A stretch of 64,000 nucleotides of DNA from Yuukianura sp. NJ FZ-2021. Lineage: Eukaryota. A model generated the notes under the pieces. It worked only from the letters and a program-made list of their open reading frames with translations. It searched no databases and had not been told where the DNA came from. Below, piece by piece: positions 9,921 through 52,274 of this stretch (within the stretch, counting starts at the first letter, position 1; every line of letters starts with the position of its first letter). The position numbers and the translations under genes are program-made. The stretch is from positions 6,324,001 through 6,388,000 of the forward strand of contig CM102285.1 in assembly GCA_046563655.1 (NCBI GenBank), written 5' to 3'.

Positions 9921-9996
9921 CCGAACCCCCAGCTATCCCCTTAGGTTACTATAGCGTACACACACTGATTCTTAGATATGTATGAGTGAGGGATTC

Positions 9997-12900: not shown

Positions 12901-14570
12901 TAGAAAATTCAAACACTCTCCCAGTCACCTCTAAGAAAATTCGTAACTTCATGAAGCGAGACAGTGCACTCTCAATTGTTACACGTTATGTGCAAGACGG
13001 ATGGCCCAGTCATCTTCCAGATTCAGAAAAATACCTACAACCATTTTTCATCCGTCGTCATGAGCTCACCATTGTCCAAGGAATTTTGATGTGGGGAATT
13101 CGTGTCGTCATCCCATCAAAATTGAGACAACAGTTACTGGACGATCTTCATTCTACACACTCTGGCATTGTTCGAATGAAGAGCCTCGCCCGTCAGTTTG
13201 TTTGGTGGCCCGAGATCGACAAGGAAATTGAAAACATTGGCAAGTCATGTCAATCGTGTGGTTCTCAGCGATCAAACCCTCCAAGTGCTCCACTTCATCC
13301 GTGGGAATTTCCTGAGAGACCGTGGCAACGTCTACATGTCGACCTCGCAGGTCCATTTCTTAATCGAATGTGGTTAGTGGTCATGGACGCACATTCGAAA
13401 TGGCCTGAAGTTTTTAGTCTGGCCAACAATGCATCAAGCAAATCCGTTATTACCAAAGTTCGTGAGTGTCTCACTCGTTTTGGAATTCCAGACCAGATTG
13501 TAAGCGACAACGGAAGTCAATTTACGTCTGGCGAATTCAAAACCTTCTGTTCTTCGAATGGAATACGTCATTCCACAAGCTCCGCCTACCACCCCCGGTC
13601 CAATGGGGAAGCGGAACGCTTCGTTCGTACCTTCAAGGAAAGTCTGAAGAAATCCACAGGAGATGCAGAACTCTTTCTTCAACGTTTTCTTTTCAACTAC
13701 CGTATCACCCCTCATTCAACTACTGGAGCAGCGCCATGCGAACTCCTGCAGGGAAGGAAGTTGAAATGTTTGTTGGATTTTGTACGTCTTGACGTCCAAC
13801 CCTCAGTCTCCAACTCCCAACTTAAACAAAAGGAAAAGTTTGACCAAAAGTCAAAACAGCGTCAGTTCACCATTGGTCAACGCGTTTGGGTCCAAACATT
13901 TTCGAAAGGAGAAGAAAAATGGAGTCTGGGCACAATCAAATCTGCAGTCGGTCCGGTCACGTACACAGTTTCAACAAATGACAAGGACTACAAACGTCAC
14001 GTCAATCACATCTTGGATGCACCTCCACTCAAGACGGCTGACGCAGTTGCTGAACAGTACGAGTCTCCCGCAGCAGAAGATCCACCTTTGACCTTCTCTC
14101 CGCTTAAGGCTCAACCAGCGATTACACTCAACCCCAGTCCGGAAGTTCCAGTTCCACGTCCCGTTCCAACACAACCGACAGTCTCAGTCCCAGTTCCGGT
14201 ACAACAGGCACCGACGCCCGCCACTACCCGTCCTGTACTCCGACGCTCACAACGCCTCCTGGACAAGACACTCAACAACAGTCTCACCCAAAACAAGTGA
14301 AGGAAGGGATGGTGTAGTGTATTCACACTTATCTTAGTTTTAGTCTCCCTAGTTTTAGTCAAAACTATGTCCCAGTATTAGGGTGTCCCCTCCCGATTCC
14401 TGCTCTGCGCCCTCATCGCCTAGAGTAGGTACTAACGAAATGTGTGCTACACACACAACCTATCCCTGACCCGGTTTGTACATAACACAATTGGCCTTAG
14501 TTTAGAATAAACAATAGTTCATTGTTTTATTCAGTGTCTACTTGTTGTACGTCATTTCGTAGACACAACA
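9997..14570 (+). mobile_element. Full-length Ty3/gypsy (Mag-like) LTR retrotransposon 2
   Basis: 258-bp LTRs 9997-10254 and 14313-14570 (one mismatch seen), TSD GATTC, PBS TGGCGACGAG 10259-10268, PPT AAGGAAGGGATGG 14300-14312. Confidence 0.97.
10273..14300 (+). pseudogene. Disrupted gag-pol of gypsy element 2
   Basis: Two Zn knuckles, FDTG, FMDD, CDASK and an integrase core; broken by TAA at 11344-11346 and a frameshift in an A-run near 12225. Confidence 0.93.
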
Positions 14571-16492: not shown

Positions 16493-17308
16493 TTAGGTTG
16501 ATTCCTCTATTCCATTCAGCAATTCGTTTGAGGATAGGTTCTGGAAATAGACTTCAAGTGGGACTGCGCCTGAGCTGGGACATCGGCAGTACCTTCCGTC
16601 GTATCTTTTCTTCACTGCAAAAATCACCATGACGGCAACCATGATGATGCAGCAGACGTCAAATATTATCATAATTGACCCCTCGTACCAGGGAACGTTA
16701 TTCTCTTCTTCTGCACTGCTACTTGATCCCATCATCGTTGTATTCGTAATTTCACCTTTTGCCATTTTTGTCAATAGTATCATTCCTAGGAGGATCCCGA
16801 GGACTATCAGCTTCCCAGTCGCACCCCGGGTTGCGCGGTTCTCATGGGTGGGTACGGCTGGAACTCTATACCTGCGGGTGTCGGCGGCCGCCATTCTCTC
16901 CTTTTCTGTCATCATTTTCCAGTGATGACAATGCCAGCATGCTGTGACGTCCGATTCCTTACATTTTGAAACCCCTTCCCGGAGCCAGTAGCTGACGCAA
17001 CTAACCGCTGCGTCTTTCTCTTCCCTGCTCAAAAGGTTGCATGCCCGCAAATATCGAATTCGTTGTTCGGGCGTTTGACGTGTGTCCGTCGGCGACAGGT
17101 GCAGCCGCCGTCGACTGAAGTCGCTGAAGGTGATGTTCCTCCACCAATCTCTCCATCTGGGGTTATATGGTGGCGGGAGCCCATCTCTGTCTTCACTTTC
17201 CGCCCCAAATTCTATTGAACTTTCACTTTCTCTTTCACTGCCGGTGCGACTAACATAGCTTTCGTCACTGAAATAAGTGATGTCACTGTCATGACTGTAG
17301 TCGGTCAT
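16493..17308 (-). CDS. Accessory membrane protein (271 aa) downstream of integrase
   Basis: Intact ATG-to-stop ORF in element sense, with LPPPY, hydrophobic segments LIVLGILLGMILL and IMIIFDVCCIIMVAVMVIFAV, an NTT sequon between them and KKR after the second. Confidence 0.7.
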   Translation of the reverse strand: MTDYSHDSDITYFSDESYVSRTGSERESESSIEFGAESEDRDGLPPPYNPRWRDWWRNITFSDFSRRRLHLSPTDTRQTPEQRIRYLRACNLLSREEKDAAVSCVSYWLREGVSKCKESDVTACWHCHHWKMMTEKERMAAADTRRYRVPAVPTHENRATRGATGKLIVLGILLGMILLTKMAKGEITNTTMMGSSSSAEEENNVPWYEGSIMIIFDVCCIIMVAVMVIFAVKKRYDGRYCRCPSSGAVPLEVYFQNLSSNELLNGIEEST

Positions 17309-17394
17309 GCTTGAGATTATTATTCAGTAGTTATCAGTTTTCACTTTCCCCTGACTTTCACTATAACTTGAGCCTTCCCTAGCAACCCCTGTAG

Positions 17395-18590
17395 TTACTT
17401 TTGTTTCTTCACAATTTGGTCGTTTTTCCTTCTGGGTCTCAAATTGTAACGTTGAGTAGATGTGTGGATAGTTAGATCTTGATTTTGACTTTTAAGTGAT
17501 TTTCCATCTTCCGTTAAGTTTTTCATGACGTCATCTTTTCCAGATCCTATTCCTTTGCTAAGATCATGATTTGAATCTGTGGATTGATTCGGGGCGTCTC
17601 CCGTCATGTTCATTGTTCCTAATTTGTCTTCCCCCTTGTTCTCCTCCTCATCGGTTGTAGTTTTTGGTGGCTCTCTTGGTGGATCTTCATTTGTAAAGCC
17701 TGAATCTGCATTGCTTTCGCCTTCGTCTCCTTTTTCATGAATAAGATGCAAATCCTTATTCCTCCGTAAATACGGTTTCATCTTATCTACATGGACTGTT
17801 TTGCGGTGCTTAGCTTTGCCAGCCGAATATTCCACTACGTAGTTGACTGGTGACCTCTTTTCCATAACAATGTAGGGACCACTGAAGTACTCCATGAGTT
17901 TGGCCGAAAGTCCTTTCTTTTTTGCAAATTTTCGAATGACGACTTCGGATCCAATTTCAAACTCCGGAGGCGGCGTCAATTTTGAGTTGACCCTTTTGGT
18001 GTATTTTTCTTGCTCCTCCGTGATGTGTGCTTTCGCTAGCAGTCTGGTCTCAGAAATCCACTTATGAAGGTCTTCGACCTCTTGGCATGCTGTGTATTCC
18101 GGTAGTAGCGCTAAAGCTGGTAGTTTAGCTTCTCGACCGTACATTAGGAAGAATGGTGACACTCTAGTGGTCTTTTGAGTTGAAGTATTGTAGGCAAAGA
18201 CCAAATGTGGTAGAAAAATGTCCCAATCCTTCTGATTAGTGCTGACGTACATGGAAATACAGTCAGTCAGTGTTGAGTGCGACTGCTGTCCCTGTCGCAA
18301 GTCGCAGTCCCTGTGATTGTGGATGGTAGGCGGTGCTTTTGTTGTGGTCAATTCCTAGCAGATGGTTGATATTTTTGAAAAGATCGCTCGTCAGGATGCT
18401 TCCTTGATCACTTTGGATGACCCTTGGGCAGCCGTGGCGACAAATCACTTGGTCCACCAGAAATTTTGCCAATTCGAGCGTGTCCGCATTTCTAAGGGCC
18501 TTCGCTTCTATCCACTTCGTCAGGTAGTCCACTGCGGTGACTACGTACTTATTTCCTTTAGCTGACCTATTAAATGGCCCCATCACATCA
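17395..18590 (-). pseudogene. Gypsy integrase core + GPY/F domain, frameshifted
   Basis: DVMGPF, VDYLTKWIEA, SDQG, STAYHPQSQG, WDIFLPHLVFAYNT, SPFFLMYGRE, FSGPY, VHVDKMKPY in two frames. Confidence 0.92.
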
Positions 18591-19439
18591 ATGAGAGCTC
18601 GTTCAGCTCGTCCACCATTGTTGGATGCTTGTCACGAACTGATTTATTCATAGCTCACACATACTCAATGTGCAAGTGCATGACCTTGCGCACTTGCACA
18701 TAACAACATCATACAGCCGAATCTTTCTTAAAAGACGTTGAACTTTACTTCGTCAGTCAAGGTTACGCCGCTCCTCAATGGCTTTACCTCGTAAAAACAG
18801 TACTTCCAGAAGAATGTCACGCATGGTGGCAACACACTCATTCCCAATCTGAATCTTGGGAGCAATTTAAAACAATATTTATCGACAGATTTGACGGACC
18901 TAGCGAACAGCGCAACAGAATGCGATATTTTTCAAACAAAATCCAAGGAATCAATGATCCTACTGAAACTTACATCTACGAAACTCTACGTCTCGCCAAA
19001 TTATGCTATCCAAAAGAAACAATCTCCGAACAACTTGAGCGATTACAAGCATCAATTTTTTCCAGGCTTCGTACACATTTGATACTCCGAAATTTCGACT
19101 GTCCAGCAGAGCTTTTCAAAGATTGCAAACGAATTCATGGAAACCTGTCAGCAGAAGACAAAATATACGGAATTTTCGACGCACTTCTTCCATTAGTGTC
19201 GTGCTCATTTGAAAACGCACAAAGTTCTCGTCGTCAGCGGAACTCTCCTCCAGAATATGATTACAACAACCTTGAAAACTTCGAAAACTTAGAATTTCAA
19301 AATCCTGAATACTCTCCAGGAAATTTCAATGAGTCATACTACAATCCAAATCTTCAACAAAAAACTCTGCAGAATTCAGAATTTTACGCCCTTGATGGGA
19401 ACCACCCTGGAAGGGAAAATGACATTTACAGAAATAATG

Positions 19440-19612
19440 GAGTAGTAACGTCTCTGTGGGCGCTACTACAAAACAAACATGACCTGTATTTCAAAAATGT
19501 AAACATGAACTACTTTTCGAAACTGAACTTCTGTCAGTGCAGTTGCACTGACAGAAGTTGAGTCTGTGAACTTTCTGAGTGCATGAGAAGAAGATGATCT
19601 CATCCTCTCATA
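19440..19612 (-). mobile_element. End of a hairpin-terminated interspersed repeat (Helentron/HINE-like), copy 1 of 3
   Basis: Homologous to 33640-33754 and 62530-62648; terminal stem GTAGTAGCG/CGTTACTAC; extra 16-bp palindrome at 19526-19559. Confidence 0.55.
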
Positions 19613-20042
19613 AGTTTTTTGTATGAATCTTCCAGACACATTAAATATGACATTAAGGCTTTACTTGGAGTTCGAGTGTTCCAGAAGTTTTTTTTTGTCT
19701 GTGTAACTTCACCATCTCATTTCTCATATCCCACCATTGAGTTTATGAGTTTTGTGCAGAAAAAAGATTTAACTAACTTTTGGAACACCCGAACCAGTGT
19801 GCGAATATGTCATAGGTGAAAGCAGAAATGTTTAAACAAAAGTTTCATCTTTGACAAAGTAGCATATGCAATGTATCAATTTGTTATGACACTTAATTTT
19901 TATGACTTTCTTTCGCATTAATCAATGCGCTTTGATGGAATCAATGCAGATTTTGGCATTCAACTTTAGTTCAGTTCTTAAGCTTACCAATGTAAGTGTT
20001 CCAAAGACGTTAAAAAAAATTCGTAAAAATTCGAAAAAACAG

Positions 20043-21360
20043 TGGCGGTGATTTGTGGAATATGTCTTGTAGACATTTTGGAAGACGGTGAAGTTTTGTG
20101 GGCGACTAAGTGCTCACACGTATTTCACAAGTAAGCCAAAAATTAATTCTGAATTTTTTTGATTCATTTTCAAAAAAAAATTTTGTTTGATGTTTTACGA
20201 AAAATAATTCTTTCGGTTGTTTTTGAAAATCGTTATCTTTTGTTGTTTCAGACGATGCCTCCTCATTGCAAATCAATCTTGGATATTTCGAAAATTGAAG
20301 ATGGACGTGCGAAGGCAAAAGCTGAGAAAAGGGCTTACGTCAAACCTGAAAAATTCGAGTAAGTTTTTTCTTAATTACCATATTCTTAGTAAAAATTGTA
20401 ATTTTGTATTTGTTTGTAGACCGCAATGCCCATTTTAACTCCGATGGAATTTAGCCCGGAAACGAGCGAGACTTCTCCGTCCGTGGCTGGGATGAGGATT
20501 ATTTTGAGCGAAGATGAGACGCCAAGACCAAGGTTAAAATTTCGAAAAATTAAGTCCTATTAATTAATTTGGTATATGAAGTTGAATGTTGTCTGTTTTG
20601 ACTAGAACTCCACCACCTCCTCCCCCACCCACTGCACATGCCTCGACTTCGACAGGTTCAACATCCCCGTCACTTCTGGAATGCAGGTAAGAATTTTATT
20701 TTGTAAGAAAAAATTCGGCTTACAATTTTAAAACTAATCTTGGTTTGTAAAATTTCTTTTTGTTTTTTAGATGTATCACCAAACAACCAAGCTACTGCGA
20801 GTTGGTTGAAGAAAAAGTCAGGCAGCAGCGTGTGAGGACTGTGGGGAGGGATAAAAGAGGAAACAAAGGACAAGCCAGAAAAAATAAAGGAACCGAGTGG
20901 GACTCGAACCCACACCTCTTCAATCCGGGAAGATGCTCTCTACCAATTGAGCTACCGGTTCGATCTGGCTTGTCATGGGAAGGGAACTGGTGTATGTGAG
21001 GGGAGTGAGACACGGGCCACTTCGTACACCATTCATCCTGGAGATTGGGAGTGGGGACTTGCTGACCAATCGCCACAAGCGAATGAAAATTTATTCCGAA
21101 AAAAAAAACGTGCGGATGATGCGCCAGATGTTTTGAACCAAATTCCGCAACGACAAACCAACACTGAGGAAGCTGCACCGAATCAACATAAGCGACGGAA
21201 GACAGATTCCGATTTGAACCGAGCTAATCCTGGACCGTCACGGAATTTGACCCCGGCAACTGCAGGACCGTCACCTAATTCTTCACAGCTGATTGCAGGA
21301 CCACCACGGACTTCGCTTCCGCCATGTTCAGGAGCGTCACGGAATTTGCCAACTGATTCA
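20043..21360 (+). pseudogene. Multi-exon RING-H2 finger gene fragment
   Basis: CGICLVDILEDGEVLWATKCSHVFH then a GTAAG donor at 20131; the next exon carries PHCKSIL; further short GT-AG introns; truncated by the copia sequence. Confidence 0.5.
20889..20961 (-). tRNA. tRNA-like cloverleaf with non-canonical anticodon loop (pseudo-tRNA or element-borne)
   Basis: GAACCGG-TAGCTCAATTGGTAGAGAGC-ATCTTC-CCGGATT-GAAGA-GGT-GTGGGTTCGAGTCCCAC-TCGGTTCC followed by TTTATTTTTT. All four stems pair, but the loop has C33 and T37. Confidence 0.6.
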
Positions 21361-21362
21361 AA

Positions 21363-24330
21363 CCCAGTGGAGAGAGATCGAACTCCACAACGTGGAGCAT
21401 ATTCCAGGGGGAGCTAACCTCCACTCTGAGAATGTACTTCTGGACAAGGGCCTCAACGTTGTTAAGTCAAGTGACGGCAAGGTCACTTACTTTCGTGACG
21501 GTGTTCCAGACATTGAAGCAGAAATCAAAGATGGTGTCCGGATCATGCTCTTCCGTCCCATCGTCAACAAAGCCTTGACTTGTGTAAAACAGGTCACTTG
21601 GCACAAGAGACTGGGTCACATCAATTCTGAGTTTCTAAATAAAACTGCAAAATTAAAGGCAGTTCATGGACTTGAAAATATGAAGCTGCGGAAAGTGCAA
21701 TGTGACTCCTGTCTACTGTCAAAGGCAACCAGGAAAAGCTTCAAAACTACAGAAAAAGAGAAGCCGGCGAAAGTAGGTGAGTGTCTCCACGCCGATCTTG
21801 CTTACGCCACCACGGCTTCCCACCGAGGAAACAAATATTTTCTCGTGGTCAAGGACGCTGGAAGCTCTTTTCGCCAGATCTACTTTCAAAAGAAAAAGGA
21901 CGAGACGGTGGCCAATATGAAAGACGCTGTTAATTTCATGAGAAATCATACTGGCAACAGTGTGAAAATGATCCGGACCGACAACTGGACAGAGTTTGTC
22001 TGCAAGGAATTTAAACAATTTCTCTCAGACCGGGGGATTCAATTTGAGTTGAATGCTCCCTACACGAGCCGAAGCAACGGTTTGGTGGAGCGGGAAGTAA
22101 GAACGGAGTTGGAAGCAGCAAGAACGATGCTGATTGAAGCTAAGCTCAGCGAAAAGCACTGGGATGACGCTGTCAGTACGGCATGTTACATTCTCAACCG
22201 TACGCTGTCATCCAAAAATAATGAGAAGACTCCTTTTGAATTAGTTTTTGGGAAAAAACCGACACTACATCACGTCCGAATGTTTGGATGTAAAGCTTTC
22301 GCCCGTGTCATGCCAGGAGTGGGCAAGTGGGAGCCAAAGTCAACCGAGTGTACGCTGGTTGCCCACAATGCAACAAACAAAAATTATGTTCTATTTGTAC
22401 CTTCGGAGAGAAAGTACATAGAACAAGCCAAGCATGTCGATTTTCTGGAGAACAGTTTTCTGGGCGACACGAAGTTAAACGGAAGCTCTCAAATTTTTGG
22501 AGAAGAAAATGTAAAGTTTTCTATCACCCCGGAAGCTGAAATCGAATATTTGGACGAAGACAATTTGATTCCACTCAATTCTCTGTCTATTGAAGAGACT
22601 GATGAAGCCATGGACGAGGGGGGAGAGGGGAAGAGTAAATCTGCTCCTTCATCCACTGAAAGTTGGGCTGAAAAAGTGGAACAACAAGAGATGTCCGTCA
22701 CTGAGCCAACGAGACGATCCACCAGAGAAAGGAAACAAGTCCAAAAGTTTCAAGCTGGGTTTAACGCCCACTTGAACATAGGAACTGAAGAACCCTGCAG
22801 CTTCAAAGAAGCAATGGAGTCTAAAAATTCTGAGGAATGGCGGGAGGCCATGGAATCAGAAATGAGAAGCCAACAGGAGAACGGAACGTGGGTCCTCGTA
22901 AAAAGGCCCCACAACAAGAAAGTCCTTAAGAACTGATGGGTTTTCAAGGTGAAAACCAACCCTGACGGATCACTAGACAAGTTCAAAGCTCGTTTGGTGG
23001 TCAAAGGTTTCAGCCAGGTTGAGGGAATCGACTACGAGGAGACTTTCGCACCGGTTTGCCGGTATGAGACAGTTCGGATTCTCCTCAGTCAAGCCGCCAC
23101 TAATGGTTGGGATGTCAAACAGTTTGACATAGCAACTGCCTTCCTTAACCGTCCATTGAAGGAAGAAAATTACATGGAGCAGCCCGAAGGCTTTGAAATT
23201 TCGAAAGATCTCGTCTGCAAACTTGAGCGGGGACTCTACGGACTGAAGCAAAGCCCCAGGGCATGGAATGAAACAATTAACGGAAAGTTAATTGAGATGG
23301 GCTTCCACGCTATTAAGAGCGACCCGTGTGTCTACAAGAAGAGAACGAGGGACACTTTGATCCTTCTAGCTCTGTTCGTGGATGATGGACTCATCATGAG
23401 TGACTCATCACAGAAAAATGAGGTGGAACTGAAGGAATTAGGAAAAAGATTCAAAGTCTCTCTACAACCACTGGATCGTTTCTTAGGAATTGAAATTTCC
23501 AAAACTGACAAGGGAATTTTCATTCATCAAAAGAGATACGTTGAAGACACTCTAAAGAAATTTAATATGTCAGAGTGCAAAACTCTGGACATACCCCTGC
23601 ACTCCAGCTAGAAGCGTGTAAAGAAGCAGATACCATTTTCAAGTTTTGTGAACTAATTGGATCTCTGCTGTTCCTTGCGAGATGCACGAGGCCGGACATC
23701 GCTCACGCTGTACACTATTGGTCACGATTCTTTACAAGTTATGACAAACAACATTGGGATGCTGGGAAGAAAATTCTTCAGTATCTCAAGGGAACAAAAG
23801 ACTTTGGAACCTTCTATGAAAAATTAGAAGGTCAAATGTTGACAGGATTTGTGGAAGCTGACTATGGATCTGACAAGAATTCAAGGAAATCCACGACCGG
23901 ATGTCTCTTTGTGTCCAATGGCGCTCCAATTCTCTGGGTGAGCAAGCGCCAAACGTGCATAGCTCTTTCCTCAACGGAATCTGAGTTTATAGCACTTGCT
24001 CAAGGAGGGAAGGAAGCAGTGTGGATTGACAGGATCTACGAAGAATGTGGAATGTCAAGGTCGGAAGAACGAATCTGCATTCAAACAGATTCTCAAAGTG
24101 CAATGAAACTTGCACGGAATCCAGAATTCCATGACAAGACTAAACACATAGCTATCCGCTACCATTGCATAAGATCGCTCATCGAAAAGAAGCAAGTCAC
24201 AGTTGAGCATCTTCCGGACAAGAAACAACCTGCTGATATCCTCATGAAATCCATTGGAAAAGTGAATTTCGAAAAGAAAAGGCACCTAATGGGTGTACAA
24301 CCAAACCCAAACGACAGGAAGAGAAAAGCT
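21363..24330 (+). pseudogene. Copia pol (GAG-pre-integrase, integrase, RT, RNase H)
   Basis: WHKRLGH, CDSC, IRTDN, SNGLVER, KARLVVKGF, QFDIATAFLN, LYGLKQSPR, LFVDD, ALSSTESEF, KTKHI; stop at 22934-22936 and a frameshift at ~23600. Confidence 0.95.
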
Positions 24331-24368
24331 CTCTCCAGTATTGTTGTTGTGCCGAAGTTGTGCCCATC

Positions 24369-25672
24369 ATGTGGACCATCACTATGCTTCTGCTCACCTT
24401 CCTAACCGTAAGTAGAGCTACGGAGGTGCACAAAACTGGAAGCTCTGTTTTGTGGAGGAAGAGCCTGGACTCAAACAAGCTCTAAATGAGCTTGAGAGAA
24501 AAGTCTTCTCAAATTCTGAAGAATCAAAAGTTCTTCAAAAAGAAATCATGAGATTAACCTCACAAATTGATGGAATTGCAAACGAATTCCACATTTTCAA
24601 AGAAGACATTGTGGAGGTACAGTACATCATTTCCTACCTCACAAGTAAATTGATGGAGGGGAAGAAGATCATGAGCGAAACTGGAAATTCCTGGAAAAGA
24701 GGTAGACTCACAACAGATTTTTTTGAGTATTTAAATTTTACTCTACCGTGTGGAGACGACTGCTCTCTGGAATACGGAATTTTTTACGCTTGTGTCATGG
24801 ACAAAAGCCGGGAAGAAATTACCATTGATTTCACACTACCATCAACAAATCAGAGTTTGACCCGTGTGGAAGCGGACCCATTTATTCTGATGTTCAAAAA
24901 CGACTCAAAGACGTGTGCTCTGAAGTGCACAGGACCAACCATGGCCACAGTGTCCGTAGAGGACGACTGTGTCTATGAGACCCACAACACGAGACCGAAA
25001 GGAAATTTGGAGCTGGCTACGCTTTCCTACTGTTAGAATACGTCAACATTCAAGACGGTGGATCATTACTTCAGAATTGATTGATGCAGAGTCTCATCAA
25101 TTCAGGGTGAAAAAGAATTTACCCAGGTGAAGTTCTTTGACAATGAATATTATATTTATTGTCCTGGGTCCCATTATTTCATCAAGAAGCGGGAAGTGGA
25201 GTGCCCTCTGGAAGTTTTTACGCTGCCTCTCTCACTCACTTTTACTCTAAACAACGTGGAGTACAAAGGAAACGTACTTGAATTGATCAATGACAGAGAA
25301 CGGGAAGACCCTTTTGTGAAGAATCATGTAAATTGGCATTTGAATCCCAACATGAACTGGAGCAACATTGCTGGAGAATTCGAGATTTTCTACAAGGAAA
25401 GTCAGAAGACCATGGAGGATGAAGCCAAAAATCTAAAAGTTTTTGAGTTTCATGACCACGTACGAGCCCATGGCAGCTGGATCCTCGTTAGAATTTTGGC
25501 GGTTCTCCTGGGAGGGACTGTTGGATTCATCGTTGTGCGCAAGTATTGTTACAAGAAGAAACGGAGCCAAGAGAAGCCGAGAAAGAACCGAAGTAGGAAG
25601 GAAATCCCGTTTCAGGAAGTCGAAGAGCTCAAGGTGCCGGAGGTGACTCACCATCACATCGTCATCGAGTAG
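24369..25672 (+). pseudogene. Env/F-like glycoprotein, family A (cleavage site and fusion peptide deleted)
   Basis: Signal-like MWTITMLLLTFLTVSRA, heptad region, Cys-rich ectodomain, TM WILVRILAVLLGGTVGFIVV and basic tail; collinear with 49442-51082; in-frame stops at 25034 and 25082. Confidence 0.8.
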
Positions 25673-25974
25673 TCAGTATTTAGTTTAAAGGGGGTGTTGA
25701 AAACCACAATCTAAATTACTGTACCTTTGATTCCGGGCCGCTGAGAGTAGGTTAGTTATTAATATAACCTTTTAGCAACTTTGTGTGAGGACAAATTCCA
25801 AGGTGGAATTTGTCCACTTAGCACCTTTCACTTTCTGTTTCTCTGTTACCGTTACTAGGCCAAGATCCAATTTGAAACCTTGTAAGCGTTATAAATTGGT
25901 TTGATCTAAATAAACTTAGTTAGTACTCTTTCAGAAGTCATCGGAGTTGTACTAATAACGTTTATTTCAACACA

Positions 25975-27995
25975 TCCATCTTTTCAAAACTGTCCATGTA
26001 CTCGTATGGGTAGACCCCTTTTAAAGCAGAAAAGACATTGCCCTGGGATGATGACGAAATGCACTTTTGGTCATTTGGAACTTATTGACATCCTTTTTCG
26101 CCATCATTTCGACCAAGTCTGCCAAGCTGGAACTGATAAACTGATAAGAGTCTATAAACTTGAGCGCGTTTCCGGCATGAGTTGTACACTCCATTGATGT
26201 AAACTTCTCTTCTGACGTGGGTAGGGGTAAAACATGTTTGAACAAGTTGCTTTTTAACGCTTGAACTATAAAGTGAAAGTCATAGTTTCGAAAATTGTGA
26301 AAAATGATGGGGATTTTTTTGGTGACTTGAAGTTGTAAGTTGCAATTATTGCAACTCACTCCTCGGATACGTCCCGTGAGGTGACAATGGTCAATTACTG
26401 TGTCTCTCACATTTGGAAACCGAACAACACAGTAGATGCAGTTTGTGGCTGCCGCTCTCATATTATAAAAATCGATTTCAGTGTATGATGGGTCACGCCC
26501 AACATCTTGTTTCAATTTTATAAAATATGGTTCAGTAATGTTCGCCAAATCTTCGAGTAAATGCAGAGCAGCGTTTCGACAACAAGAGGTCAATGGTTCC
26601 TCGCACATCTTCCCGGTTGGTCCTACAACAACAAAACTGTAGCCACAGTCAACGTGTTCATTCAGCACGGTTCCAAATCGCATTGTTCCATTTTCTTGTC
26701 GTAAAATGCACTCAAAATCACAGAAAATGACAAATGACAATGGTAGTGTGTGACGAATGTGCTTGAATGTGAACTTGAATTCAGGCGGAAAGCATACACC
26801 CTGCGGCTCAACTGCAGCACAAAAAAACTTGATGCCTTTCTAGTGTTGTCTTGGAGCTCCAATAATGAAGACAAAAGTTGCAAATGTACTTCTGATTATG
26901 CTTCTCGTTTTGTCCCAACAGGCGAGACAAACCGAAGGATGGATTTTAATCTGTTTGCTTCAGCAAAACAAAGTGTGAATTGCAACCTTCAATTAATAAC
27001 AACAGATCAATGTGCTTTTCTCTTTTTTCACGACAAACATGTATGGGAAACACTTTCATTTTCTGGTTCGAGTAATTTGGATCTAGTTCGTCGACTGCTT
27101 CATAGCCATACACATTTACGGATAGTCTTGTGTTGAAGTGTAAGAACTTGTCCAGTTGCTCCGTATTCATAGGAAACTGGATACAGTCAAAGTCCAGAGT
27201 GTGAGAGAAACTGTCGTAGGTTCTTGGGTTGGTGACATGATACCAGTTCACTGATCCATCCTTGTACAATGGATACAATTCAGCTAAAATTGCATATTTG
27301 AAGCACTGGTCGTCAGAGCTTCTAATGTTCACAACACATCTCTGTCTGGTCATATTAGCAGGCGTCGCAATCCAGCCATCACCACGCTGCATTCGGTACA
27401 CGGAAAATTTGAATGTTATCCACTTGAATCGACTCACACGCCAACCAGACCCTTTCCTCAAGAATGCGGCTATTGTATCTCCAATTTTGTTTGACATAAG
27501 CCGAAGGGTATTTTGAATCATTCTGGGTTCTAAGGTGATGTGCGTAAATGAACGGAATGGAAAATCCTCAACTTGTTCTTCAGTGTTACTTCCATGAACT
27601 TGTCGTGTCATTTCAACTAGTGCTACACTGCTCACCAAGTACGACCTGATTTCCCCATGAATCTTTCTCATCAATTCCCGCAAAGTTGCTGAACAGTGAG
27701 TAAAGCCACCAGCCACATCCACAACCACATCTTCATCAAACGTTGCGGTATACTCGCGAGTGGCACCGCCGAATGCAGTCAATTCATCGAAATGTGCTTC
27801 ATTCTCTGGAGCACTTCCACCCGGTTGGTTTTCAACAGAAGGATACAGTTCTGGGCGAGTATTGTACTGGCGCTCACCCAACTGCCCAGGATACTCAAAA
27901 TTTATTCCACACTGAACACAAAATCGTCTCTTGTAATTCCTTAATTCCGAAGCAACAGCATCTAGTTCTGAATTGAAAGACAACATTATTTTCAT
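25975..27995 (-). pseudogene. Polinton/Maverick-type protein-primed DNA polymerase B, N-terminal half with endonuclease-VII-like and exonuclease motifs
   Basis: KGSGW, VVNIRSSDDQCFKYAILA, FCDFECIL, DHCHLTGRIRGVSCNNCNL, IFHNFRNYDFHFI, FIDSYQFISSSL, KGVYPYEYMDS; frameshifted and ending at the copia LTR. Confidence 0.85.
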
Positions 27996-31410: not shown

Positions 31411-32237
31411 CCAATAAGAACAGAAATATCGTTAACGGAAGCAAAAAACAGGAAGCCTGAAACTGAAGCAAAAACGTACGATAACAATTTTTTTCTATAG
31501 AAAGCTTAGAAGGGAAGTTTAACGTTTTGACACTTGTTCTGACTGGGCAATAAGTGTTACGACACGTGTTGACGGGTCTTGTTTTGTATGAAATTGTTTT
31601 ACTTCTCATTCTTATTTCCCAAATGATTTGCTGTGTAATAAAGACAGAAAGCTATCTCATAACAAGCGATTTGCAGCAGAGTCTTTGTAGCAAAATCCAT
31701 CCAACGCTTTCAGGAAGGACGATTGCGATGAAAAGTAAGGAGAAAGTATCGGTACGCAGCGGTGAAGCGATAACAGGAGACTGCTTCCGCACACGCTCAT
31801 CATATTAAACCCGACATAACTATGGGTAGCGTTAGTTGCGATTCAGAGACGTAACGCGATTTAAAGTTAAAACTACATTCACAGTGCTGGCAGGAAGGTT
31901 TAGAGCAAACGTTTCACTGACGACGCAATTATAAATGTTATAAGTAAAAGTAACATAGGATAATTTGGAAGATGGGCAGAAGCGTTGTGAAGTGTTCATT
32001 GTGTAAGTTTAATATGCAGCCATTGAAGGTGCAAAACGACTAACTGCAGCCTTTATGTGAAAAAAACTAAGTCGTAAAGTTGTAAGCAAACGTGCGCAGA
32101 AAGGAACTAAGGAAAAAATTGTTTGTGAATGAGTGTATGCTGCTTCCAGTTTTGACAACAAAGCAGCTCCAAATTTACTCGTTTGTTCAAGTTTTCTGCA
32201 AAAGAAGTAAGTAGCTAAAAATAGTCAATTTGTTGAA

Positions 32238-32915
32238 CATTCAAAATACAAAGGAAGGATAAAGTCCTGGTGGGGAAAGAAGTCCAGTGTTGAATGAAAC
32301 TGCTGATGCTGTTTCCATTTTTGAAAACACAGCAGGTCAAATCCTAATCGTTTACTAAATTTTTTGCAAAAAATGCGAAAATCAAAAAAATTCAATTTTT
32401 TCAAAATTCAAAAACAAAAGAAGGATAAAGTCCTGGTGGGGAAAGAAGTCCAGTGTTGAATGAAACTGCTGATGCTGTTTCCATTCTTGAAAACACAGCA
32501 GGTCAAATCCTAATCGTTTCCTAAATTTTTGCAAAAAAAATGCGAAAATCGAAAAAATTCAGTTTTTTCAAAATTCAAAAACAAAAGAAGGATAAAGTCC
32601 TGGTGGAGAAAGAAGTACAGCGTTGAATGAAACTGCTGATGCTGTTTTCATTTTTGAAAACACAGCAGGTCAAATCCTAATCGTTTCCTAAATTTTTTGC
32701 AAAAAATTGAAAAGTAGAAAAAATTCAATTTTTTTAAAATTCAAAAACAAAGGAACGATAAAGTCCTGGTGGAGAAAGAAGTCCAGTGTTGAATGAAACT
32801 TCTGATGCTGTTTCCATCTTTGGAAACACAGCAGCTTCAAATCAAATCAGCTCGTTGATTAATTTTTTTGCAAAGAAGTACAAAGTAAAAAAAAGTTAAT
32901 TCTTTCAAAATTCAA
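32238..32915. repeat. Tandem repeat, ~166-168-bp unit x4
   Basis: GATAAAGTCCTGGTGG(G/A)GAAAGAAGTCCAGTGTTGAATGAAACTGCTGATGCTG recurs at ~32258, 32424, 32591 and 32757. Confidence 0.92.
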
Positions 32916-42240: not shown

Positions 42241-42469
42241 AGGAAAAGAATTGTGTGAAGATCCTGCTAGTTTAGAGGTTGCAAAATCAAATCCGCTACA
42301 ACGTAGTCAACAATTTCATGAAGCAGTGAAAGATGCAATGCGCAAGAAATCTGCTACCGAAGTTGAGGTAATTTTTTTTTTCTTAAGTTTTTCTAAAGTT
42401 TTTTAGGGGTTTAAAGGGGGCTAAATCATGGAGCAATTTTAGAACAAATACAAACCCAATTTTTTAGAC

Positions 42470-43782: not shown

Positions 43783-45185
43783 AAGAACTTAGTAGTAAAA
43801 CAGCGACTGAAGAATATGAAAGAGGTTTGGCATTTAAATCTTTGAGGGACCGTAGAGGGGGTGAGGAATAGTGCCGTGAATTAATTTAATTTTAGGAAAA
43901 TCACTTTTGATCACTCTTGTGTTTTACAATTAAACTTGCTTTGTTAAATATAAATACTAATACTAATACTACATTCAATCCGACAATCAGTACACCTATT
44001 GTATATTGATATTAACCTAACAAAAATTTAAATTAGCATAGAATAGTGAACCGACCATGTACTACTAATATTTAATTTTCTTTGAGCTCCATGGGCTGTG
44101 GGCCCGCAGGGAGCAATAAATCAAGCAATACCAATACCAATACTAACGAACGGATGACAATAAACCAAAAGTGTGCAAGCAACTTTTTTTGCAAGTTGAA
44201 GTTATATCCTTTGGTTCAGAGAACCGAAAAGGCGTCGTGTCAGTTTGACACAAAGACAATCAGACTTGGATGGCAAATTGACAGACTGCATTTTTTGCCA
44301 TCAAGTCATAAATACCTGGGGCAACTTGAGATTTCCGGCAGGCAGTAGTGGCTTACAGCCCTCATCAAATTTTCTCATTGAAGTATTTAAATGAATTGTG
44401 ATGTCTTGATGTACTTTGAATTGTCAAGTCTTCTTCTTCGACAAAAACGAAATCATCAAGCATTTGCAAGTTGAATTTAAACAACTTTCTTGCAAATAGT
44501 TATGTACTTTCGCTATCATTGGTAATAATGTATCCTTTGAACTCGTTTCCTACAATCCGAACAAATTTTCTTGCGATTATAATAGGGTTAACCTCTGAAG
44601 CCTCTATTTTTGCAAAATACTGTCACTTTCATTTTGAATAATGAGAAGAATCATGTTAAAAATATGGTTAGCATAATTTAAATCATACAAACAAGAATAT
44701 GCGTCACATTAGGAATTTAGAATTAGGACGTCTACCTCTACTCACGTAAATGTAAATAAGGTCAAATGAGCAAACAGGATTTGGTAAACTAATTTTAAGT
44801 AGGTAATTAAGTCACCTCATTTAGTTTACAATAACATAATAGACAAGGACAAGGAAGGTCATAGTTGACGTAGGTTCCAGGATATAACGTAAGAAATAGT
44901 TTTTATCAAGGACACTAGGTCAAGTGACTAATGTCAAATTTCAAGTTAGTGTAACCATATAAATACCAATCACCTAGATAGGAAAAAGTGTCAGTGGTGC
45001 TTCGTGGTTAAAACTCCAAGTTTATTGTTATAACAAAACCTCAAAAATCCAAACGCTGCGATTTACGACTGAGTTTATTATAAACTTTCAACACGTTATC
45101 AGCATGATCTACACGATCTACGCGATCTTCACGATCTACCAAAAAGGGTCCGTTCTAGAAGAATTCAGCCAGCTTAGAAGACGCC

Positions 45186-48100
45186 ATGGCTTCCAACTCT
45201 AATCAAACATCTGCAGCTGTGCCCGGTGGGACCGTAACAAGTTACCATTTTTTAAACAAAAAATTCGATACTGATTCCATTACAAAACTTAACGAGGACA
45301 ATTATATAACGTGGAAACTGAGGTTAGAAAGCTTGTTTAGAGCACATTTTAAAGGTAGTCAATGGGACTACGCCAAGACCTGCAAATGCAGGCGTTGACC
45401 AGAGCAAGTGGGACAAGCATAATAACGAGGCAATAAGTTGCATTTATCTTTGTATCAAAGACAAAGAACTAAGTTCCATTGCAAGTTGTTCCACTGCTGC
45501 AGAAGCATAGAACAAACTGGCAACAATTCATCAAGACGTAAGCGGAGAGTCAAAAGGACTGCTCTGGCAAAAATTCTAGCACGTCAAAACAAGCAGCGAT
45601 AAAAGCGCTCTTCAGGCAATGATAGAAATCCAAAACCTTGCGGTTCAATTGAGGTCATTAGGCTCCGTCGTAGACGAGGAGTCTGAAGTCTCGAGAGTTA
45701 TCACCAGTTTGGATGATAACAAATACAAGCATTTTAAGGAAGTCGGTCGAAAGTTCAAGGAGAACGACAGGAAATCTCCTGTCACGACTTAAAGCTTTGG
45801 ATTTAGAGCAACCTAAAGAAAAACAGGCTGATGAGTCAGCATCAAAATCCTTTTCTTCTAATGAAGGTAAGGAGGGGAAATTTAACAACCGCAAAGACAA
45901 GTCAAATGATATTTGCAGAATTTGCTCCAAGAAGGGGCATCGGGCGAGAGACTGTTTTCATAAAAATACTCCTGTCTCATACAAAAATATTCCCAAGGGT
46001 ACAAAAATACGCCCGAACACAGGGACCTATAAACGAGACTCAAATTGGAAACCCAATGAGCAGGGAAAACGGGAAAACAGAGATAGAAATGCCTACATGG
46101 TATGGCAGATCTAGATCTAGTCGATCTAGCAGAACAATGGATAAACGATTCTGGCGCAGATCAACATTACTGTGGAAATCGAGAATTGTTCTCAGATTTC
46201 ACAGTCTATGAGAAACCCAAAGAAATTCACATGGCAAATAACATGTGCAGTTACGCTGAGGGCTTTGGCACGGTCAAAGTAAATGCTTTTAAACAAGGAA
46301 GATGGGAAGAAATTGAATTACATAACGTGGATTACATTCCCCAAGGAGTAAACCTTGTTTCAGAAAACGCGCTTCTAGAAAAAGGTTTTGAAGTAATAAA
46401 GAATAAATTTGGGGATATAACGTTCTTTTGGAACAATGAGCCGGATCTTGAAGCCGTTCGGAAGGACGGGCTTCAATTCTTGAAATTCAAGCCCATAAAA
46501 AGAAAACATGCTTTCACCTGCATAAAAGAGGTAACATGGCATAAGCGCCTTGCCCATATTAATGGTGAATTTCTAAAATTGACAAAAGAGAAAGAAGCTG
46601 CTCTTGGATTAGAGCAAATGAAGGAGGAAGATTTTACTTGTGACTCCTGTCTTTTGGAAAAATCAAAGAAACAAGGGTATAAATCCAGCCAGACGGAAAG
46701 CAATTTCAAAGAGGGTGAATGTCTTCACCTTGATCTGGGTTATGCAAATACCACCTCGAAAAAGGGAAATAAATATTTCCTCGTCATTAAAGATCAGGCA
46801 AGCAACTTCAGGCAAGTGTATGCGCAGAAGACTAAATATGAGACTGTGAAAAATATTAAGGACGCTGTTCACTTTATCGCTAATCAAACGGGAAATTATG
46901 TCAAAGTCATTCGAAGTGACAATGGCACTGAAATAATTAATGAGGAGTTAAAACAGTTTGTGTCTCAAAAAGGAATACAGTTGGGCACAAATGCTCCTTA
47001 CTCAAGCGCGAGCAACGGTTTTATCGAAAGGGACATCAGAACCATTCAGGATGCAACTCGTACAATGATAATAGAGGCAAATTTAAATGACACTTTCTGG
47101 GAAGATGCAGTAAAAACCTCAGTCTATTTTCTGAACAGAACTCTATCTTCCCGTAATAAAGTCAAAACGCCGTATGAGCTGATTTTTGGTAAAAAGCCAA
47201 AATTACATCATGTCAAGACATTTGGATGCGAAGCTTTCGCGCATAAAATGACAAACGCAAATAAGTGGGAAGAGAAAGCAACAAGATGCATTCTGGTGGG
47301 GTACAACTCCGCCAACCATTTGTATAGGCTCTACAGCCCAGAAAATCATGTTTACCTTGAACAAACAAAACACGTGTCACTTAACGAAAAGGTTGAAAAA
47401 ATCAAAATCAGAAATATCTGTCAAGAAGATATCACCGCAATAGAGACACTTCCAACGTCACAGACAAAAATTGATACCTTGGATACGTCAAAATCTGATC
47501 CTGCCAGCAATAAAATTGTTTTAAGGAAGGATTTGACAGGAGAATACAGAATTGTTTCTCCCGCAAAAGACGAAAAACTTAACGCGGATTGTGATTATGT
47601 AAATATTGAAAATTTAAAAATCAAATCAGACACTGAAAATAATTCAGTCGAAATGACACCGGAACTCACGCATGACAATGAGTCTCTTAACGCAAGAGAC
47701 TCATCGTTAATACTACTGCTGGTAGTACTGAAAACACACTGCGCAGGTCCGCTCGCTTGTTGGCCAAAAATGCAAAATTCCAAATGTTTGTACTACAAAC
47801 TGTTCCCAACTCTTACAAAGAGGCCATTCGAACACAAGAAGCTGACGAATGGAAACAGGCAATGGAAGATGAGTTCAAAAGTCAACTCCAAAACAAATGT
47901 GGATTTTAGTATCAAGACCATTGGAAAGAAAAATACTCAAAAACCGATGGGTATTTCGCATTAAGACCAACCCTGACGGAACAATTGAGAAATATAAAGC
48001 CAGATTAGTAGTAAAAGGCTTTAATCAAGTAGAAGGGGTCGATTACGAAGAAACGTTTGCCCCGGTTTGTCGTTATGAAACAATTCGAATAATGCTGGCC

Positions 48101-49441
48101 CTAGCTGCTCAAGAAAGCTGGGATATGATTCAATTTGATATTGCCACAGCTTTCTTGAATAGCAATTTAGACGAAGAAATATACATGGAGCAACCTGAAG
48201 GTTTCGAAGTTCAAGGTACTAGCATTAAAGGAGAGAGTTTAATCTGTCTCCTTAAGAAGGGCTTGTACGGACTCAAGCAAGCGCCATGGTGCTGGAATAA
48301 TACTCTGAACAACGAACTTCAAAAATTAGGGTTTTCCGCTCTCACGTCCGATTATTGTGGTTACAAGAGAGCACAGGAGAACAAAGTTACTTTCATCATA
48401 ATTTATGTCGATGATGGCATAATTATTGGAAATGACAAAAAGGAAAATCAACAAATCTTAGCAAAATTACAAAATGTCTTTAAATTGACAGTAGGAAACT
48501 TGACCAAGTTTCTTGGCATAGAGATCAAGCAAAAGAAAAATAGCATTGTTAATAGTCAAAAAGGGTACATTGAATCTATGTTGGAAAGGTTCAATATGTC
48601 CAATTGTAAACCACTCAACATTCCAATGAGCCCTGGTTTACAACTCAAAACAGCAGAGACAAAAGGCAATTCAGACTTTGAATATCAGGAATTAGTAGGA
48701 TCTTTATTGTTCCTGGCTATATGTACTAGACCAGACAATGTTCACTATCTGTCACGTTTCTTTGGCGCCTATGACAAAGATCATTGGGAAGCCGCCAAAA
48801 ACATTCTGAGATATCTAAAAGGGACAGCAGACTTGTCCATAGAATATAAAAAGGACTCGACCTTGACACTGGACGGTTATGTTGACGCAGATTATGGCTC
48901 AGACATCAACACAAGAAAGTCAACTACGGGTTGTCTATTCACCATAAATGAAGCACCTATAATCTGGCTAAGCAGACGACAAACTTGCATTGCGTTATCT
49001 AGCACCGAAGCAGAGTACATTGCTCTGTCTCATGCAGGAAAAGAATCTATCTGGTTGAGACACATTTTGGCTGAATGTGGTCACCCTCAAGAGCAAGTTG
49101 TCATTCAAACTGATTCCCAGAGTGCTATTAAACTTGCAAAAAACCCGGAATATCACGACAAGACAAAACACATTGACATCCGCCATCACTACATACGCAA
49201 CTTGATGGACAAAAAATTGGTCACGTTACAGCACACTCCTGATAGTGTTCAACCGGCGGATATCCTGCCCAAGGCAGTTAACAAAGAAACTTTTCTGAGA
49301 AAAAGAAAATTAATGGGACTTGATGAACATCCCACATCCTATGCACATGCAGTAAAAAGGAAAATTTTAAAGACGACTGTCAGTTCTACTCCAGAGTCCG
49401 CGACGACAACCAACTCTAGTGCAACATTTAAAACTGGCAAA
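45186..49441 (+). pseudogene. Copia gag-pol (gag, PR, IN, RT, RNase H)
   Basis: KLNEDNYITW, CRICSKKGHRARDC, WINDSGADQHY, WHKRLAH, IRSDNGTE, KARLVVKGF, LYGLKQA, IYVDD, YVDADY, KTKHIDIRHH; several stops/frameshifts. Confidence 0.95.
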
Positions 49442-51082
49442 ATGCATTTCATTTGCTGCCTTCTTCTTCTGATCACCATGGGTACCATCGGAGATGGCTC
49501 AGTGGTTCCTGCTCATTTGGTCAATTTGTTATCTGGCGTCAAAATCCTACTCCCGTTGTGACTCCAATCCAGAATTAAACTTGTGTCGCCGTGTGATCTT
49601 CTTTCACCACACAACACCGGAAGTCGGTTCATCAATGAAGTTATTGATAAGTGCGAGGACAATTATCACGAGATTGTACTGGACAATTTGAAAAAGATCT
49701 GCCCTCCACAACCAAATACCTCAATGACAAGAGGGAAGAGAGAGTTATTTCTTACCATTGGTATTTTGGTAGTTGCCGCCATTGCCACCACCGGCATTGG
49801 ACAAGGTGGACTAGCTCTTACCAAATCAATGTCTGTTCAAACAAGACAAGAAGAAATGAAAATTGTGCTAGACGACCTCGAGAAAAAAGTTTTCTGAAAC
49901 TTTGAAATCAACAAGAGTGTGCTACAAAAAGAAATTCTTAAATTGGCTGGAAAATTGGATCAAATTCGCAATCAAGTTCTGAATAGCCAACAAGAAGCTG
50001 TGGAATGGGCATACGTCGTTTCATATTTAATGGGTCGGATGTTAGAAGGAAGACAAGTCATACTTCAGACTGGAGAACTGTGGCGCAGCCGTCAACTAAG
50101 TAATGATTTCTTCTCTTACTTCAACATCACCTTACCTTGCGGAAGTAATTGCCCTGTGACCCACGGCAGCTTTACTGGATGCTATATGGATGACGACGAT
50201 GAAATCCATTTGGATTTTACCGTTCCAAACGTCGATCCGTCACTGATCCTTTTCGAGGCTGACACTTTCAAAATACGACAAACTGTAGGAAACAAAACAT
50301 GTTTTCTTCAATATCGCGGTCCAAAGTCTGTCATCATGTCTACCACACGTGACTGCATCTTTGATACCTTCAATGAAAAATTGAACAAGAACTTTATTTT
50401 GAGCACGACGCAAACTTGCAAAAATTCGCTGCAGAAAACTCAGCAGGAATATTTCCAAGTAGATACTTGTGAAGCTACACAAACACCATTACCACCTTTC
50501 ACCCAAGTGAAATTCTATGACAACGAATATTATATCTACTGTCCGTCCAGCAACATAGAATACAATGGAAGAAAAATTCCGTGTTCTAACAGTATGTTCA
50601 CCCTTCCACTGTCAACATCATTTACGTTAAATGGGGTCAATTATACTGGAAATATTTTACAAAAAATATACACGGAAACAGAAGATCCAATTCTAAGAAG
50701 CCAGTTGAATTGGCATCTCAATCCGGTGAAAGCGTCTAATCAATCCGTGGAAGAACTTGAGAAGTTTTGGAACAAAGAAATACAGGACATAGAAGAAAAG
50801 ACGCACCACATTAAAGAATTTGAATTTTCGGATTCATTCTCGTCAAACAATTGGTGGGGATTGGCAGTCCTTCTCATTCTCATCCCTGGAAGTTTGATTG
50901 CCATGAAGATGGGAGTTCAATATTACAGGAGACGCCGAAACTTTCTAACCAGGCGACGTCAAATAGCAACACGCGCAAGTCCTCCAGGAATTGAAATGGA
51001 GGTTTTGAATCCACCTGTCCCACGTCAACAACCTGTACCGAAAACTCCAACTATCAGTAATCATCACATTATTATCAGTTAG
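49442..51082 (+). pseudogene. Class I fusion (env/F-like) glycoprotein, family B
   Basis: Signal MHFICCLLLLITMGTIGDG; RGKR at 49730-49741; hydrophobic ELFLTIGILVVAAIATTGIGQGGLAL; heptad repeat; Cys-rich domain with NTS/NIT/NKT/NYT/NQS sequons; TM WWGLAVLLILIPGSLIAM; RRRR tail. Same frame as RT-RH, with TGA at 49559 and 49895. Confidence 0.88.
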
Positions 51083-52274
51083 ATTTACAGGTAACATATT
51101 CTTGTTTGAGAAGGGTGTTAAAAATATGGTTAGCATAATTTAAATCATACAAACAAGAATATGCGTCACATTAGGAATTTAGAATTAGGACATCTACCTC
51201 TACTGACGTAAATGTAAATAAGGTCAAATGAGCAAACAGGATTTGGTAAACTAATTTTAAGGAGGTAATTAAGTCACCTCATTTAGTTTACAATAACATA
51301 ATAGACAAGGACAAGGAAAGTCATAGTTGACGTAGGTTCCAGGATATAACGTAAGAAATAGTTTTTATCAAGGACACTAGGTCAAATGACTAATGTCAAA
51401 TTTCAAGTTAGCGTAACCATATAAATACCAATCACCTAGATAGGAAAAAGTGTCAGTGGTGCCTCGTGGTTAAAACTCCAAGTTTATTGTTATAATAAAA
51501 CCTCAAAAATCCAAACGCTGCGATTTACGACTGAGTTTATTATCAACTTTCAACAAATTACGTCGGTTTTACGAAAAAAAATCGTTTTTCTGGTCTCTTC
51601 TATTTTTCCCTGCAGGTGTGCATCAATAATTAATTTTCTACCACTGGTATTAGCTAACTTTGTTTTGGTCCAGGGGATAGAGTCCCCACCCCGAAAAAGG
51701 TCACTTTCGCCGTTTCGCCCGACAGGTGTTCATTGTTCAATCCCACCTCGGGTCGAATTCTTTTTTTTCGCGTTGTGAAACGAGAATGGTGCTAGAAGTG
51801 TTTTTGAACAATGAGAAACCACTTCCGTGTTTCAGAATTTCAGATTTCGAAAAACGGCCAAGAGCCAGTCCTCGTAAGTTAGGTTTTTTTTTTATAAATT
51901 AAGTGGAGTTGATGAAATTAAAAAAAAAATTAGCACAACATGTCCATTTCCGGCTCCGACTCCATCATGTGGCGCCGCAATTTTATCTGTGGGCCACTCG
52001 ATCAATGGATTTCGGATTATGTTGAATTTTGGATCCAGTGGCTATTTGGTGACGGGGTAAATACGAAAAAACAGGAATTATGTGTAATCTCACAATAATA
52101 CATTTGCTGACTTCTTTTCTTTCAGTCAAGCTATGAATGCAGTGACTTCCGCAATGCACTTGACGTGCAGAAGAATTCAAGCTCTTATGGCAAAGTTGGA
52201 TGCGTAAGTTGAAGTCTAGTTAATATTACTCGTAACAATTCATTAATTAAATTCCACAAATTTTTCCCATACAC

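Follow-up and report, generated by a model that had tools for sequence, protein, structure and literature searches.

Envelope (env) genes turn a long terminal repeat (LTR) retrotransposon into a potentially infectious agent, and in animals they have been documented on Ty3/gypsy elements (errantiviruses) and on BEL/Pao elements. In a stretch of 64,000 nucleotides (nt) from Yuukianura sp. NJ FZ-2021 (assembly GCA_046563655.1, contig CM102285.1, positions 6,324,001 to 6,388,000, forward strand), hereafter called the window and numbered from its first letter, two Ty1/copia retroelements carry an env-like gene between the polymerase gene (pol) and the 3' LTR. This raises the question of whether env is ancestral to a clade of several copia families, as an original prediction had proposed, or the product of one capture in a single family. 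The answer reached here, to which we assign as a whole a probability of about 85%, is that the first of the two (element 1) is a dead copia insertion whose env is of the type of the paramyxovirus and pneumovirus fusion (F) proteins, and that the two elements represent two families of one env-bearing copia clade.

Element 1 (21359-25972, + strand) is a dead, 5'-truncated Ty1/copia insertion with env as its last gene. Its layout runs from integrase, reverse transcriptase (RT) and RNase H through the env-like gene to a polypurine tract and a single LTR, as follows:

21359..22936, + strand: integrase part of pol (Pfam gag_pre-integrs, rve, SH3_retrovirus; tblastn 55.6% to element 2 from 21359)
22937..23599, + strand: RT of copia type, frame 2 (Pfam RVT_2, E = 8e-60; 53.9% to element 2)
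23581..24357, + strand: RNase H with the end of pol, in frame 1 after a shift (tblastn 56.5% to element 2, 55% to relative P0003)
24369..24482, + strand: what is left of the env signal peptide, with the conserved V/I-x-W-R-K-S motif, in frame 3 and ended by a stop (translation)
24416..25036, + strand: env part 1, end of heptad repeat A and cysteine-rich ectodomain, frame 2 (BLASTP E = 9e-44 to element 2)
25037..25084, + strand: in-frame stops breaking env (open reading frame (ORF) list, translation)
25085..25672, + strand: env part 2, rest of the ectodomain, membrane-proximal helix, transmembrane segment and basic tail ending HHHIVIE (BLASTP E = 4e-41)
25687..25694, + strand: polypurine tract AAAGGGGG (read from the sequence)
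25695..25972, + strand: 3' LTR, 278 bp, TGTTGAAA...TTTCAACA, TG..CA ends (sequence; termini common with the LTRs of element 2)

The integrase ORF is terminated by a stop at 22934-22936, and frame changes are also present in pol. Homology to pol begins at 21359; no 5' LTR, gag or protease was found upstream, and a search of 18500-27500 for a repeat of the 278-bp LTR gave no copy upstream of the element. Within env, the signal-peptide remnant has a weak tblastn match to residues 628-685 of P0003 (E = 0.002), and parts 1 and 2 cover positions 147-335 (E = 2e-60) and 353-511 (E = 8e-44) of the env profile. No env profile match was obtained in element 1 below model position 147, and about 325 nt are absent between 24357 and 24470 relative to its relatives; the deleted part is the core of the F2-like region, the cleavage site and the fusion peptide. 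A tRNA-Ser(GGA) gene (20889-20961, - strand) stands shortly before the point of truncation, and between this gene and element 1 are two 33-nt direct repeats of 73% identity (21212-21277).

The second element (element 2; 44654-51555, + strand) is a full-length copia element whose gag, pol and env are all broken:

44654..45093, + strand: 5' LTR, 440 bp (repeat; TG..CA ends)
45186..46114, + strand: gag region, scattered over several frames and broken (ORF list)
46087..47964, + strand: protease-like beta-barrel and integrase (Pfam Pol_BBD, gag_pre-integrs, rve, SH3_retrovirus)
47873..49384, + strand: RT and RNase H (Pfam RVT_2, E = 4e-68)
49442..51082, + strand: env, in frame with pol (profile matches, structure model, fold search)
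51116..51555, + strand: 3' LTR, 440 bp, preceded by the purine run GAGAAGGG (sequence)

The two LTRs differ at 9 of 440 positions, and the flanks of the element, AATCA and AATTA, agree at four of five positions when examined as a 5-bp target duplication. Its env comprises, in order, a signal peptide, an F2-like part, an RGKR site, a hydrophobic fusion peptide, a coiled coil, a cysteine-rich ectodomain, a transmembrane segment and a tail; it matches the env profile at 49562-49894 (E = 1.5e-22) and 49898-51079 (E = 2.6e-91), and is broken by frame changes near 49520-49580 and by an in-frame TGA at 49895-49897.

Both elements are identified as copia by RVT_2, with rve, gag_pre-integrs and SH3_retrovirus upstream of RT; the Ty3/gypsy organization of errantiviruses (RVT_1, RT_RNaseH and an integrase after RT) was found in neither pol and accompanies only env relatives that are more distant. 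The original prediction that the two env genes are collinear is borne out by protein comparison, the env ORF of element 2 (49898-51082) matching 24416-25036 at 39% identity over 168 amino acids (aa) (E = 9e-44) and 25085-25672 at 36% over 195 aa (E = 4e-41), collinearly throughout, and tblastn giving a single collinear match of 390 aa (36.7%, E = 5e-83). All five motif pairs quoted with that prediction were found in the translations of both elements. The pol genes are 54-59% identical. As for the LTRs, which had been described as differing in length (278 against 440 bp) without obvious alignment, only the termini TGTT[GA]AAAA and GTTTATT..TCAACA are common to both families; the absence of further alignment thus stands, whereas the 278-bp length comes from one copy, because element 1 has no 5' LTR. 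Elements 1 and 2 are two diverged families within one clade of env-bearing copia elements.

Whether env is ancestral to this clade was approached through its relatives. An exhaustive search of 1.84 billion protein cluster representatives with env gave 428 clusters at E ≤ 1e-3, 202 at E ≤ 1e-10 and 50 at E ≤ 1e-30; a word-indexed search among proteins of similar length gave no match to the env ORF, a blank that marks the sensitivity limit of that search, because the exhaustive one did find relatives. Among the best 150 of the 428 clusters, 33 have a copia pol and 14 a Ty3/gypsy pol fused upstream in the same predicted protein, and 103 consist of env only. In addition, the RT-RNase H of element 2 was searched against longer proteins; among the 120 matches listed, 117 were new, 17 of which carry env.

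A tree of RT-RNase H was built from 97 rows, of which 34 bear env and 63 have none in the same protein. All those with env, elements 1 and 2 among them, sit together in one clade of 35 rows, with a support of 99 in the Shimodaira-Hasegawa-like approximate likelihood ratio test (SH-aLRT). The sole env-less row inside this clade is P0175, a Folsomia candida gene model named 'Copia protein'. It is near-identical to the env-bearing P0171 over the aligned blocks (84% overall, with gaps) and leaves the frame exactly at the pol/env junction. Its env-less state is a gene-model artefact; with all env-bearing rows in one clade, one gain of env within copia therefore suffices. The env tree (100 rows) agrees with this, as one branch (SH-aLRT 95) splits 32 copia-linked from 14 gypsy-linked rows, and none of 500 label shuffles needed as few changes as observed. 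When the RT and env trees of the same 16 elements were compared, 7 of 13 splits were common, as against at most 3 in 2000 label shuffles; both trees contain ((element 1, element 2), P0003), with supports of 97/94 and 100/100, and in the larger RT and env trees element 2 is an early branch of the same small clade in both genes. The comparison of env and RT trees that had been proposed as a check on the original prediction thus yields agreement, and the single RT clade, the single branch in the env tree and the concordance of the two genes support an env ancestral to a multi-family copia clade and not one captured in a single family.

The 14 gypsy-linked clusters are P0078, P0084, P0093, P0105, P0109, P0111, P0118, P0122, P0126, P0127, P0133, P0134, P0145 and P0146; in these, env lies at the C-terminal end of Ty3/gypsy-type polyproteins of 948-2686 aa encoded by one ORF.

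In intact relatives, env begins with a signal peptide and a small N-terminal part with conserved cysteines, followed by R-x-K/R-R with a hydrophobic stretch and a long coiled coil, and continues with a cysteine-rich beta body, a second helix, a transmembrane segment and a short tail. Of the 76 rows that extend over the N-terminal part, 57 have the motif R-x-[KR]-R with a hydrophobic 30-mer after it. The layout of signal peptide, cleavage site with fusion peptide, and transmembrane anchor is present in the family and in element 2, and is deleted in element 1. Positions conserved in at least 90% of sequences comprise nine cysteines and ten others; all 19 are retained in element 2, and 18 of the 19 in element 1. 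A six-frame scan of the window with the env profile gave no env homologue beyond the two copia elements.

From profile matches, two AlphaFold models and two fold searches, we conclude that this env is a predicted class I fusogen of the paramyxovirus/pneumovirus F type. When a profile built from 44 env sequences was searched against the PDB, its best matches were paramyxovirus and pneumovirus F0 (7ki4_A, E = 1.8e-5), in register across the cleavage site, fusion peptide and heptad repeat A. The AlphaFold model of the intact relative P0004 has a predicted local distance difference test score (pLDDT) of 79.4, and among the Foldseek matches listed for it all are paramyxovirus or pneumovirus F chains (best E = 5.4e-9, probability 1.00, template modeling (TM) scores 0.28-0.42); a search independent of Foldseek (VIA-align wide, 48,161 chains) placed paramyxovirus or pneumovirus F or foamy-virus Env in its top 16 rows (Z 7.4-4.7). 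For the 394-aa env ORF of element 2 itself (pLDDT 79.0), every Foldseek match listed to rank 40 is an F chain (best E = 2.6e-5). With these proteins (PDB 1ztm, 3rki, 3maw, 8utf), its best sequence-profile and fold matches, the copia env has in common a small N-terminal and a large C-terminal subunit with a basic cleavage site between them, a fusion peptide, heptad repeat A, a beta-rich body, heptad repeat B and a transmembrane segment. On the other hand, it is only 8-16% identical to them, remains below the cut-off of the Pfam family Fusion_gly (PF00523) and has a cysteine pattern of its own; moreover, the F gene belongs to negative-strand RNA viruses, whereas this env belongs to a retroelement. 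The best Fusion_gly score was 24.3 bits (P0020), the gathering cut-off being 29.8, and 3 of 44 members match at E ≤ 0.01, all below the cut-off; the Pfam scan of the window ORFs gave no Fusion_gly match. No other viral env family in the scan matched more than 2 of the 44 members, and the baculovirus F family matched none of them at E ≤ 0.01.

An uninterrupted gag-pol-env ORF of 1741-2006 aa is present in 25 distinct clusters, namely 12 of the 24 long proteins scanned and 13 of the 17 env-bearing RT matches. These intact relatives are laid out as LTR, a single frame of gag, protease, integrase, RT, RNase H and env, polypurine tract and LTR.

Several of our results weigh against an ancestral F-type env in a copia clade, and the rival explanations draw on them. 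The RT tree came from a fast search under LG+G4, was rooted at its midpoint and carries no support values other than SH-aLRT; 30 rows of unknown env state and all rows with incomplete RT had been dropped beforehand. 'Env-less' in this tree means that the predicted protein itself has no env, and such rows may have one in an ORF of its own further downstream. Furthermore, only three relatives bear organism names. It could be argued that the two copia families each gained env on their own and not long ago, perhaps through recombination with a Ty3/gypsy errantivirus-like element resident in the same genome. The occurrence of the same env family on Ty3/gypsy pol in 14 of the best 150 clusters does mean that env was exchanged between superfamilies at least once, and gypsy-type elements are present in the window. 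However, the env-bearing copia RTs form one clade, a single branch divides copia-linked from gypsy-linked env rows, env and RT trees agree for the same elements, and the gypsy and BEL elements of the window have no env homologue; we regard separate acquisition as highly improbable. We give similarly little credence to the idea that the 3' ORF codes for a different kind of protein, secreted or in the membrane, or is a gene taken from the host, with a superficial likeness to F created by a coiled coil and a beta-rich domain. In favour of this idea, the Pfam scan of the env ORFs and the 44 members gave no env family at its cut-off, and the fold scores are modest, with TM-scores of about 0.2-0.4, as expected if helices differ in placement, and Z-scores of at most 7.4, in the middling range of the tool. 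But the sequence profile, Foldseek on two models and the Foldseek-independent aligner all agree, in register with the cleavage site, fusion peptide and heptad repeat A; the order of signal peptide, small N-terminal subunit, furin-type site, hydrophobic peptide, long helix, cysteine-rich domain, second helix and transmembrane segment is that of an F protein, and a location between pol and the 3' LTR is that of env.

Less remote than either of these, and nonetheless rather unlikely in our judgement, is that env was ancestral and is now a decaying relic genome-wide, the clade persisting here as an ordinary intracellular retrotransposon or not at all. Both window copies are decaying and neither carries an open env; element 1 has entirely lost its cleavage site and fusion peptide, and the window copies give no demonstration of a working env in this host genome. 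Yet these copies are damaged in gag and pol as well, which has the look of general post-insertion decay and not of a loss confined to env, and the 25 clusters with uninterrupted gag-pol-env ORFs lie elsewhere. Long purifying selection on env had also been proposed for these elements. In a pairwise Nei-Gojobori comparison of nonsynonymous and synonymous substitution rates (dN/dS) between elements 1 and 2, dN was 0.62 for env and 0.34-0.38 for pol, and synonymous differences were saturated (proportion of synonymous differences, pS, 0.85-0.91), such that no dN/dS ratio could be obtained. For the lineage, selection on env is indicated by the 25 uninterrupted ORFs, the 19 conserved positions and a dN of 0.62 with saturated synonymous sites; for the two decaying window copies it is not shown. 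An env ancestral to the copia clade, with decay of the copies in the window, remains the reading that we prefer.

The single frame of the intact relatives has its counterpart in the window, where env lies in the frame of RT in element 1 and in that of pol in element 2. Several of the relatives closest to the window elements have no methionine ahead of the env signal peptide, so that expression of env needs either splicing that supplies a start from upstream or a signal sequence that works from inside the polyprotein, a device known from flaviviruses. The junction was observed in P0155, P0156, P0159, P0160, P0165, P0171 and P0002, and a conserved basic stretch, K-R-x-A-L-S-S-V-I..P-K-R-P, stands directly before the env signal peptide (region 49384-49500 of the window). 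If env acts as its predicted fold suggests, the signal peptide would take it into the endoplasmic reticulum, and cleavage by a furin-type protease at R-x-K/R-R would yield two subunits, the small one F2-like and the large one F1-like. Exposed by this cut, the hydrophobic peptide at the new N-terminus would enter the target membrane, refolding of the two helical repeats would draw the membranes together, and capsids with element RNA would move between cells in the manner of errantiviruses. From this likeness we infer that env would be cleaved, form trimers, fuse membranes and confer infectivity.

In the Ty1/copia elements of plants known as sireviruses (SIRE1 and relatives), an env-like ORF lies between pol and the 3' LTR. 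To our knowledge they were the only copia elements with env known beforehand, and we know of no demonstrated likeness of their env-like ORF to F proteins, the comparison being one of description only. No report of env on an animal copia element came up in full-text searches of the literature, although annotations of this kind may exist in Repbase or in bioRxiv supplements. While F-type env on Ty3/gypsy and BEL/Pao elements is already known, env on animal copia is thus apparently undescribed, in that we could not find an account of it.

The closest known counterparts are the errantiviruses, Ty3/gypsy elements with a paramyxovirus F-like ENV that occur across animals, and the survey describing them covered springtail genomes and retained only Ty3/gypsy elements (eLife 2026, PMC13524379). 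As in the window elements, their env is the last gene and F-like, with a signal peptide, a furin site and a transmembrane segment, and env and pol largely co-diverge (PMC13524379); the 14 env relatives on Ty3/gypsy pol form a further link between the two. In contrast, the pol of the window elements is Ty1/copia (RVT_2, with the integrase before RT), the env of the copia clade is in the same reading frame as gag-pol, and its env rows are set apart by one branch. F-like fusogens outside Ty3/gypsy have been reported in the same source for Roo (BEL/Pao) env and lokiretrovirus Env, which belong to other pol superfamilies and resemble the present env by description only (PMC13524379).

The named relatives of the window elements come from springtails, Orchesella dallaii (P0003, P0024) and Folsomia candida (P0175). 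The family of element 2 is multi-copy, with many pieces that are 90-99% like element 2 in DNA contigs of two organisms. According to Klai et al. (2025), springtail copia elements all fall, from RT/RNase H only, in a taxon-specific clade called CoCol (PMC11889832); in the main text of that paper the words 'envelope' and 'ORF' are absent. Its reference is a Folsomia candida Repbase element (PMC11889832), and springtails are likewise the named hosts of the relatives found here. The position of P0175 from Folsomia candida inside the env-bearing clade indirectly suggests that this clade may be CoCol itself, whose members group with Copia-2_FoCa and Sicur_clus4 in RT/RNase H.

The window as a whole is transposon-rich animal DNA with Ty3/gypsy, BEL/Pao and polymerase-B elements. 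The 3' LTR of element 1 is immediately followed by two minus-strand ORFs (26021-27995) with Endonuclease_7 and weak DNA_pol_B_2 matches, which represent a mobile element of the polymerase-B type, and a similar N-terminal fragment without Pfam match lies at 41816-42271 (- strand). A Ty3/gypsy element at 9989-14570 has 266-bp LTRs that are 99% identical (9989-10254, 14305-14570) and a pol in three ORFs, and a second gypsy pol ORF of 1237 aa is found at 5267-8980. At 16493-18354 (- strand), a C-terminal fragment of a Ty3/gypsy-type integrase is followed by a 276-aa ORF with two hydrophobic segments, which gave no Pfam match and no match to the F-type env profile. About three tandem copies of a unit of about 166 nt (32193-32825) lie upstream of a BEL/Pao element (Peptidase_A17 at 34122-35210).

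Taken jointly, these observations allow a broader proposal, on which we hold the odds to be even: that an animal copia clade, possibly comprising all springtail copia (CoCol), consists of retrovirus-like agents with an F-type fusogen and forms the copia counterpart of the errantiviruses, env having passed once between copia and gypsy and then co-diverged with pol, and the one-frame gag-pol-env arrangement, together with the lack of a start codon ahead of the env signal peptide in several members, implying an unusual mode of env expression. If this is true, all three LTR superfamilies would have taken the env route with the same kind of fusogen, and a dated case of env exchange between superfamilies would be at hand. 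It could help to explain why springtail copia forms a separate clade and how copia elements move between hosts, and the single gag-pol-env frame raises the concrete question of how env is expressed.

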